From: Escherichia coli
GTDB lineage: Bacteria > Pseudomonadota > Gammaproteobacteria > Enterobacterales > Enterobacteriaceae
Assembly: GCF_045037415.1 (NCBI RefSeq)
Contig: NZ_CP173438.1
Direction: 5' to 3' (one strand)
Length of the DNA: 64,000 nt
Shown here piece by piece: positions 63,177 through 63,545 of this stretch (the first letter of the stretch is position 1; each line of letters begins with the position of its first letter). A program made the position numbers and the translations under genes. The notes under the pieces were generated by a model, which was given only the letters and a program-made list of their open reading frames with translations, had not been told where the DNA came from and searched no databases.

Positions 63177-63545
63177 AACCAATCCCTTTGCAAGATGATG
63201 TGATTTAAACGTAATACACACTCTGGTACCTCGCCACGCCCCAGGCGTTGAGATATTCGTTTCTGGTATAACGGCATAACGCAGATGGCTGACAATGTGC
63301 TTATTGTTTCCTGCCGAATGCGACATGCACGCCTTATCCGTCTCACATGAGTTTGTCAGTTCAATAAATTGCGATTTTCACCTGTTTCATCGTTCTTTTT
63401 TACATGTTGTGTTGTGGGCCGCACTTTTTTGTCATTTCCTGATATGCAGGATAACCGTCAGGAAGCAGGCTCGAATATTCTTATTTTTCAACTTGCACCA
63501 ACATTCGATTAACCCCAGACTAACGCCTCCTGACGGGAGGGACTC

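Follow-up and report, generated by a model that had tools for sequence, protein, structure and literature searches.

The hca-less yphA–hcaT junction of phylogroup B2 Escherichia coli is probably an old, inherited deletion allele

Introduction

In the record of Escherichia coli K-12 MG1655, the genes of the 3-phenylpropionate dioxygenase cluster are arranged in the order hcaT-hcaR-hcaE-hcaF-hcaC-hcaB-hcaD-yphA, and the starts of hcaT and yphA are 5,499 bp apart. In a 64,000-nucleotide stretch of E. coli DNA (contig NZ_CP173438.1 of assembly GCF_045037415.1; hereafter, the window), the list of open reading frames and the sequence place the same two starts on either side of a 370-bp spacer (63177–63546). 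This raises the question of how the short junction arose: by a recent deletion in a single isolate, by an old deletion that has since been inherited, or by descent from a site that never held the hca genes. The original prediction, made from the sequence alone, favored a strain-level loss that left behind a REP-like recombination scar and an orphan transporter. Here, we describe the junction at the base level, its distribution among E. coli genomes, and its relationship to the corresponding sites of other enterobacteria.

Organization of the yphA–hcaT locus

The yphF, E, D, C and B genes lie on the plus strand of the window, and yphA lies opposite them on the minus strand (Table 1). A blastn comparison with K-12 aligned the yphA side (62700–63259) at 97.1% identity and the hcaT side (63458–63999) at 99.1% identity. 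Between these boundaries, 5,328 bp of K-12 (NC_000913, 2667935–2673262), comprising hcaR and hcaE, F, C, B and D, correspond to 198 bp in the window (63260–63457). Compared with the K-12 hca cluster (Diaz et al. 1998, cited in PMC10249474), the window has the same yphA, hcaT and hcaT upstream region, but it lacks the regulator and the five catabolic genes, all six of which are present in K-12. The adjacency of yphA and hcaT at about 370 bp, the K-12 gene order and the absence of a 5–6-kb block had all been predicted, and the open reading frame list, the MG1655 record and the K-12 alignment bore them out, the missing block measuring about 5.1–5.3 kb. The 198-bp filler showed no match to K-12 by BLAST, with the exception of the REP-like stretch; these junction nucleotides without a K-12 counterpart rule out a simple deletion of the K-12 layout.

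Table 1. Coordinates of features at the yphA–hcaT locus in the window
Feature	Position	Strand	Basis
yphB (aldose 1-epimerase), end of the yphF-E-D-C-B run	61834..62706	+	ORF list; annotation in identical genome
Ordinary REP between convergent yphB and yphA	62716..62750		resembles K-12 REP copies
yphA (DoxX-family membrane protein), 140 aa	62754..63176	-	ORF list; annotation in identical genome; 97.6% nucleotide identity to K-12
yphA-proximal spacer, common to cassette-bearing genomes	63177..63259		blastn against K-12; E. albertii comparison
Putative hcaR 3′ tail TAACGGCATAA, 11 nt	63269..63279	+	identity to hcaR end
Decayed BIME-1/RIP element	63282..63390	+	family alignment; 76% identity to fepA–entD copy
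Homologue of the hcaR–hcaT intergenic region	63391..63546	+	comparison with K-12, IAI39 and L006
hcaT codons 1–151, truncated by the window end	63547..64000	+	ORF list

Strain IAI39 carries IS1397 between yphA and yphB (L089, 15043–16391), at the place where the window has a REP (about 62707–62753). The yphB–yphA REP (62716–62778) scored 38.9 bits against the REP-derived Rfam family naRNA4, below the gathering score of 59.5. In strain AR_0081, yphA is split by IS1.

Distribution of the junction among E. coli genomes

Of 5,426 complete E. coli genomes, 1,044 contain the contiguous junction and 1,046 contain the 198-bp filler at full length. The K-12 hcaR–hcaD segment was detected in 4,379 of these genomes, as a rule as one copy each, and none of the 5,426 carried a plasmid copy. 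The cassette carriers and the filler carriers add up to 5,425 of the 5,426 genomes, and these complementary counts indicate that the hca genes of the junction carriers are missing and not relocated, relocation being the alternative named in the original prediction. In about 32 genomes, the match to the hca segment covers under 80% of that segment, and strain G5 keeps only 91 nt of it; the cassette appears to have been disrupted or lost sporadically and independently in these genomes, apart from the B2 allele.

Over its last 24 kb, the window matches O25b:H4-ST131 genomes, among them EC958 and JJ2434, at 100.0% identity, indicating that it derives from ST131, a lineage of phylogroup B2. The filler was also found in ATCC 25922 and NC101, both B2 strains. 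In VTB97074v, the most divergent carrier among the matches listed (98.5% identity over 1.3 kb), the spacer is the same and differs at 4 of 370 positions. The complete K-12-type arrangement, with the cassette, is present in IAI39, a phylogroup F strain and a close relative of B2. One ST131 genome, SK1402, has IS1397 inside the 24-kb stretch.

These data bear on the possibility that the isolate lost the genes recently, in a strain-specific deletion through recombination at REP sequences. A REP-like sequence does lie in the junction, but 1,046 genomes, up to 1.5% divergent in sequence, have this same junction, a second species, E. albertii, has an orthologous one, and neither K-12 boundary has a REP at which recombination could have taken place. 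Such a deletion is refuted by the distribution data, and we regard it as extremely improbable.

The loss of hca in B2 is in fact a published trait of the lineage. Touchon et al. (2009; PLoS Genet, PMC2617782), whose strain set took in IAI39 and UMN026, reported that all B2 strains lack hca. Fang et al. (2018; PMC5996543) found that genes absent from B2 are enriched for 3-phenylpropionate catabolism, and growth on phenylpropanoate was predicted to be absent in their models; a metagenomic study of preterm infants (PMC4819403) also has the hca genes among the differential E. coli functions that it tabulates. The genes, the phylogroup and the predicted phenotype are the same as in the window, with no substantive difference. 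As a whole, the ST131/B2 origin of the window, the 1,046 carriers and the 2009 report indicate a lineage-wide haplotype, the fixed state of the whole B2 lineage, and not the strain-level polymorphism first proposed. The observation is therefore real but ordinary, and the absence of hca cleanly distinguishes B2, including ST131, from other E. coli, which makes it useful as a marker. What is added here to the known trait is the base-level anatomy of the junction, the count in 5,426 genomes and an outgroup comparison. The added value is modest: the allele is probably old and inherited rather than a fresh deletion, and its REP-like piece is most likely a stranded BIME-1 repeat.

Anatomy of the junction

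On the yphA side, K-12 reads ...GAGATATTCG CTAATTATCCTGG TTA, the final triplet being the hcaD stop codon in complement, and E. albertii, which is without the cassette, reads ...GAGATATTCG CTAATTATCCTAG TCTGG.... The 13 nt CTAATTATCCTGG before the hcaD stop are found in K-12 and E. albertii, and 11 of the 13 are gone from the window (B2).

Beyond this point, the window contains the sequence TAACGGCATAA, which is identical to the final 11 nt of hcaR, stop codon included, in K-12, IAI39 and a divergent Escherichia genome (L006). It has the orientation and position expected for an hcaR tail and lies immediately upstream of a repeat, outside the consensus of the repeat family. A match this long to the final 30 nt of hcaR, at any place and on either strand of the filler, occurred in 0.16% of simulated fillers (~0.0016). 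We infer that these nucleotides are a remnant of hcaR, which may reach back to about 63263. Against this reading, the exact match is just 11 nt long, and the join to the left of the tail is not clean.

On the hcaT side, the hcaR–hcaT intergenic region of cassette-bearing genomes, 159 bp in length, is homologous to the remainder of the spacer (Table 1). The homology is clearest in L006, where ...TTTTTGTCATTTCCTGATATGCATGATGAGCGG... corresponds to ...TTTTTTGTCATTTCCTGATATGCAGGATAACCG... in the window. The last 89 bp of the spacer (63458–63546) are 99% identical to K-12 and should carry the hcaT promoter, which is described in PMC10249474. A consensus scan for sigma-70 promoters and terminators over 63100–63620 returned no sites and was uninformative.

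The filler was also compared with the yphA–hcaT spacer of E. albertii. The two are colinear in two blocks of 74% and 85% identity (E about 1e-17 each), and the flanking genes of the window and E. albertii are 86–95% identical. The colinear spacer, together with this flank identity, indicates that the allele is old and common to both species.

A decayed BIME-1 repeat in the spacer

The central part of the spacer is occupied by a repeat element (Table 1). A BIME-1 is defined by a y REP, a long conserved L linker, which often contains an IHF site, and an inverted z1 REP (PMC3333891). The element in the window includes a flanking motif, CAGATGGCTGACAA, a degenerate y-type REP (63312–63340), a putative L linker (about 63352–63372) and a remnant of the far flanking motif (63375–63390). 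Over 98 nt, it shares 76% identity with the intact K-12 copy in the fepA–entD intergenic region and aligns with other K-12 family copies in gcd–cueO (after gcd) and flgF–flgG, all three of which have the BIME-1 structure of a y REP, an L linker and a second, inverted REP. The y-type REP of the window aligns with the y REPs of these three copies, but it is degenerate. The linker-like sequence TTGTCAGTTCAATAAATTGC aligns with the L linker of the family and may be its counterpart. In the family alignment, the second, inverted z1 REP is absent from the window but kept in the orthologous E. albertii element. An Rfam search of the filler gave no match. Because the MG1655 record annotates no repeat at the fepA–entD copy, the identity of the element as BIME-1 was assigned by alignment and from the literature.

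A REP-like fragment at about 63311–63341 had been noticed in the original prediction. The fragment is present, one base away from that position (63310–63340), but its interpretation as a recombination scar does not hold, because it is the y REP of a decayed BIME-1 that has an orthologue in the E. albertii spacer.

The location of the element is unusual for its family. The intact relatives lie at the 3′ ends of genes (fepA, gcd, flgF–flgG), after stop codons, and never between divergent genes, and the title of the paper by Boccard and Prentki (cited in PMC3333891) gives the 3′ ends of transcription units as their location. The window element lies instead between the divergent yphA and hcaT genes. 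The y-type REP, the L-linker-like sequence and the flanking motifs of BIME-1/RIB/RIP elements (PMC3333891) are recognizable in the window; the copy differs from these elements in the lost second REP, the degenerate y REP palindrome and the divergent-gene location. Since the family consensus begins (CAGATTG..TGACAA) 2–9 nt past the stop codon of the upstream gene, the hcaR tail falls outside the repeat. The presence of a BIME-1 in the now-divergent spacer would be accounted for if the element once followed the hcaR 3′ end, and the REP-like piece is most likely an orphaned repeat that formerly followed hcaR.

Origin of the hca-less allele

The best explanation of the 370-bp yphA–hcaT spacer is an old, inherited deletion allele, to which we assign a probability of roughly 0.7. 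The ancestral Escherichia arrangement would have consisted of yphA and hcaD, B, C, F and E in one orientation, followed in the other orientation by hcaR, the BIME-1 and hcaT. Everything from the hcaD stop codon to about 11–20 nt before the hcaR stop would then have been lost, leaving behind the hcaR tail, an orphaned and decaying BIME-1, and an intact hcaT upstream region. From the junction and the comparisons with other genomes we infer both the polarity of the change, a deletion, and the age of the allele.

The cassette itself appears to be no recent arrival. Between K-12 and L006, the cassette genes are 89.5–93.7% identical and the flanks 82–93.5%; for K-12 and IAI39, cassette and flanks have likewise diverged to the same degree (96.6–98.2% identity). 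Because the divergence of the cassette equals that of the flanks, the cassette is likely to be old and vertically inherited since before the split of K-12, L006 and IAI39. Other pieces of hcaR persist at empty sites that arose independently: three sites in the Kluyvera group retain 34–105 nt of hcaR at 75–96% identity (codons ~225–260; tblastn E 6e-9), and in Escherichia sp. MOD1-EC7003 (L004) a 40-nt internal hcaR fragment (7848–7887) is fused to a K-12-type hcaT upstream region. The L004 arrangement is a third loss allele, differently rearranged; no yphA, yphB or yphC was found within 8 kb upstream.

A second explanation is that the empty site is ancestral, that hcaR-hcaEFCBD was inserted in the ancestor of non-B2 E. 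coli and that B2 never had the cassette; Kluyvera, Pseudocitrobacter and others would then have gained it separately or horizontally. A purely ancestral empty site was favored at first from the alignment with E. albertii, an outgroup whose spacer is orthologous to that of B2. The left boundary at the hcaD stop position is, moreover, identical in B2/E. albertii, E. whittamii/E69 and all cassette alleles, and one insertion would explain this common boundary more simply than several deletions. The cassette is also patchy, being present in only 8 of 80 hcaT loci (one genome per species across Enterobacteriaceae), and yphA–hcaT adjacency is widespread. In Enterobacter, Leclercia and Lelliottia, the two genes are commonly adjacent with no detectable remnant between them, and translated searches of these spacers found no trace of hca; this counts against deletion. 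However, an insertion would require a pre-existing target sequence that happened to complete both hcaD and hcaR, and the position of the hcaR tail outside the repeat-family consensus and of a BIME-1 between divergent genes would otherwise be unexplained. Divergence equal to that of the flanks in L006, IAI39 and K-12, the presence of the cassette in IAI39 (phylogroup F, the closest to B2) and the hcaR fragments at the empty sites of Kluyvera and L004 likewise argue against it. An ancestral empty site was downgraded because of the hcaR tail, the hcaR–hcaT intergenic homology and the hcaR fragments elsewhere, and we now consider it improbable. For the E. whittamii/E69 spacer, an hcaD 3′ remnant was considered but not supported, since the middle 75 nt of this spacer have no significant match to the cassette.

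The history of the alleles departs from the species tree. A block of ~35 nt upstream of hcaT exists in two versions, one in ST131, E. albertii and L006, and the other in K-12, IAI39 and L004; in the window, the block (about 63430–63457) is the E. albertii/L006 version and not the K-12/IAI39 version. The flanks are mosaic as well. In the comparison of 60728–63999, yphB and yphC of ST131 were 97.3–99.0% identical to IAI39 versus 95.6–96.3% to K-12, and hcaT was 98.6% identical to K-12 versus 96.8% to IAI39, a pattern that points to a recombination breakpoint in or close to the junction. Both the conflicting genealogy and the mosaic flanks, with the yph genes closest to IAI39 and hcaT closest to K-12, would fit an ancient introgression, in which the B2 ancestor took the empty allele from a divergent Escherichia lineage by homologous recombination and not by uninterrupted descent. 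The immediate flanks, however, are ordinary E. coli (97–99% to K-12), so that the imported tract would have to be very short, and the identity of 74–85% between the spacer and that of E. albertii is about as expected for the species split and indicates no recent transfer. We consider this route rather unlikely.

The old deletion allele can be placed, tentatively, in a broader history, in which two ancient alleles, one of them the B2 junction, have existed side by side since about the split of E. coli and E. albertii, through trans-species polymorphism or old introgression, and in which the cassette was deleted repeatedly and independently in Escherichia and Kluyvera while hcaT was always retained under strong constraint. 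If true, selection would have acted recurrently against the phenylpropionate dioxygenase branch in some niches, and HcaT would have a function that is independent of hca.

Metabolic consequence of the hca loss

Phenylpropionate and cinnamate commonly arise in the gut from plant polyphenols and phenylalanine. According to the established pathway (summarised in PMC2617782 and PMC10249474), a cell without HcaEFCD and HcaB would be blocked in the conversion of 3-phenylpropionate and cinnamate to their 2,3-dihydroxy intermediates, and the absence of hca explains the model-predicted non-use of both compounds. The ST131 strain EC958 keeps mhpR-mhpABCDFE-mhpT. With a full mhp cluster and no hca it resembles ED1a (mhp present, hca absent; Touchon et al. 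2009), and ST131 differs from the B2 "mouse-killer" strains of the same study, which are also without mhp. On the basis of gene content, ST131, like ED1a, is predicted to retain the lower pathway and the use of 3-hydroxyphenylpropionate. The deletion would have spared both the downstream mhp pathway and hcaT, which is transcribed and conserved separately.

Status of hcaT

The original prediction regarded hcaT as an orphan transporter, a description that our comparisons show to be misleading. In all 80 enterobacterial loci, 72 of which are without the cassette, hcaT is followed by csiE. Across all Escherichia pairs, the dN/dS ratio of hcaT is 0.02–0.04, also where neither lineage has the cassette, and hcaT is therefore under strong purifying selection in cassette-less lineages. 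In genomes identical to the window, the gene is full-length and intact (379 aa). As the window holds only codons 1–151, the full-length protein was taken from a genome identical to the window over 62700–64000; it scored 707.6 against NCBIfam TIGR00902 (cut-off, 698.9) and 624.5 against NF008346 (cut-off, 259), the families of the 3-phenylpropionate MFS transporter HcaT. In K-12, hcaT has its own promoter and a ΔhcaT strain still grows on 3-phenylpropionate, the evidence for transport being indirect and genetic (PMC10249474), and expression of hcaT is stable enough for its use as a qPCR reference (PMC3110127). The csiE pairing, low dN/dS, intact gene and own promoter indicate that hcaT is a conserved core gene beside the cassette and not a leftover of it. 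Because most enterobacteria keep hcaT without hca, it should not be seen as a functional appendage of the hca operon.

Two further features were observed near hcaT in other genera. In Kluyvera and Pseudocitrobacter (loci L033, L034, L035, L038, L039, L047, L058 and L074), the spacer contains a conserved palindrome resembling a CRP site, GTGAT-N6-ATCAC (e.g., AAAGGTGATTTTCATCACAA), ~100 nt upstream of hcaT; this palindrome is absent from the K-12 and ST131 spacers. In Citrobacter braakii, C. portucalensis, Citrobacter sp. On2M and C. werkmanii (L011, L012, L013 and L015), an hcaR-like gene (85–87% aa identity; position about 87) is located ~8 kb upstream of hcaT with other genes intervening, an arrangement unlike both the K-12 and the empty layouts.
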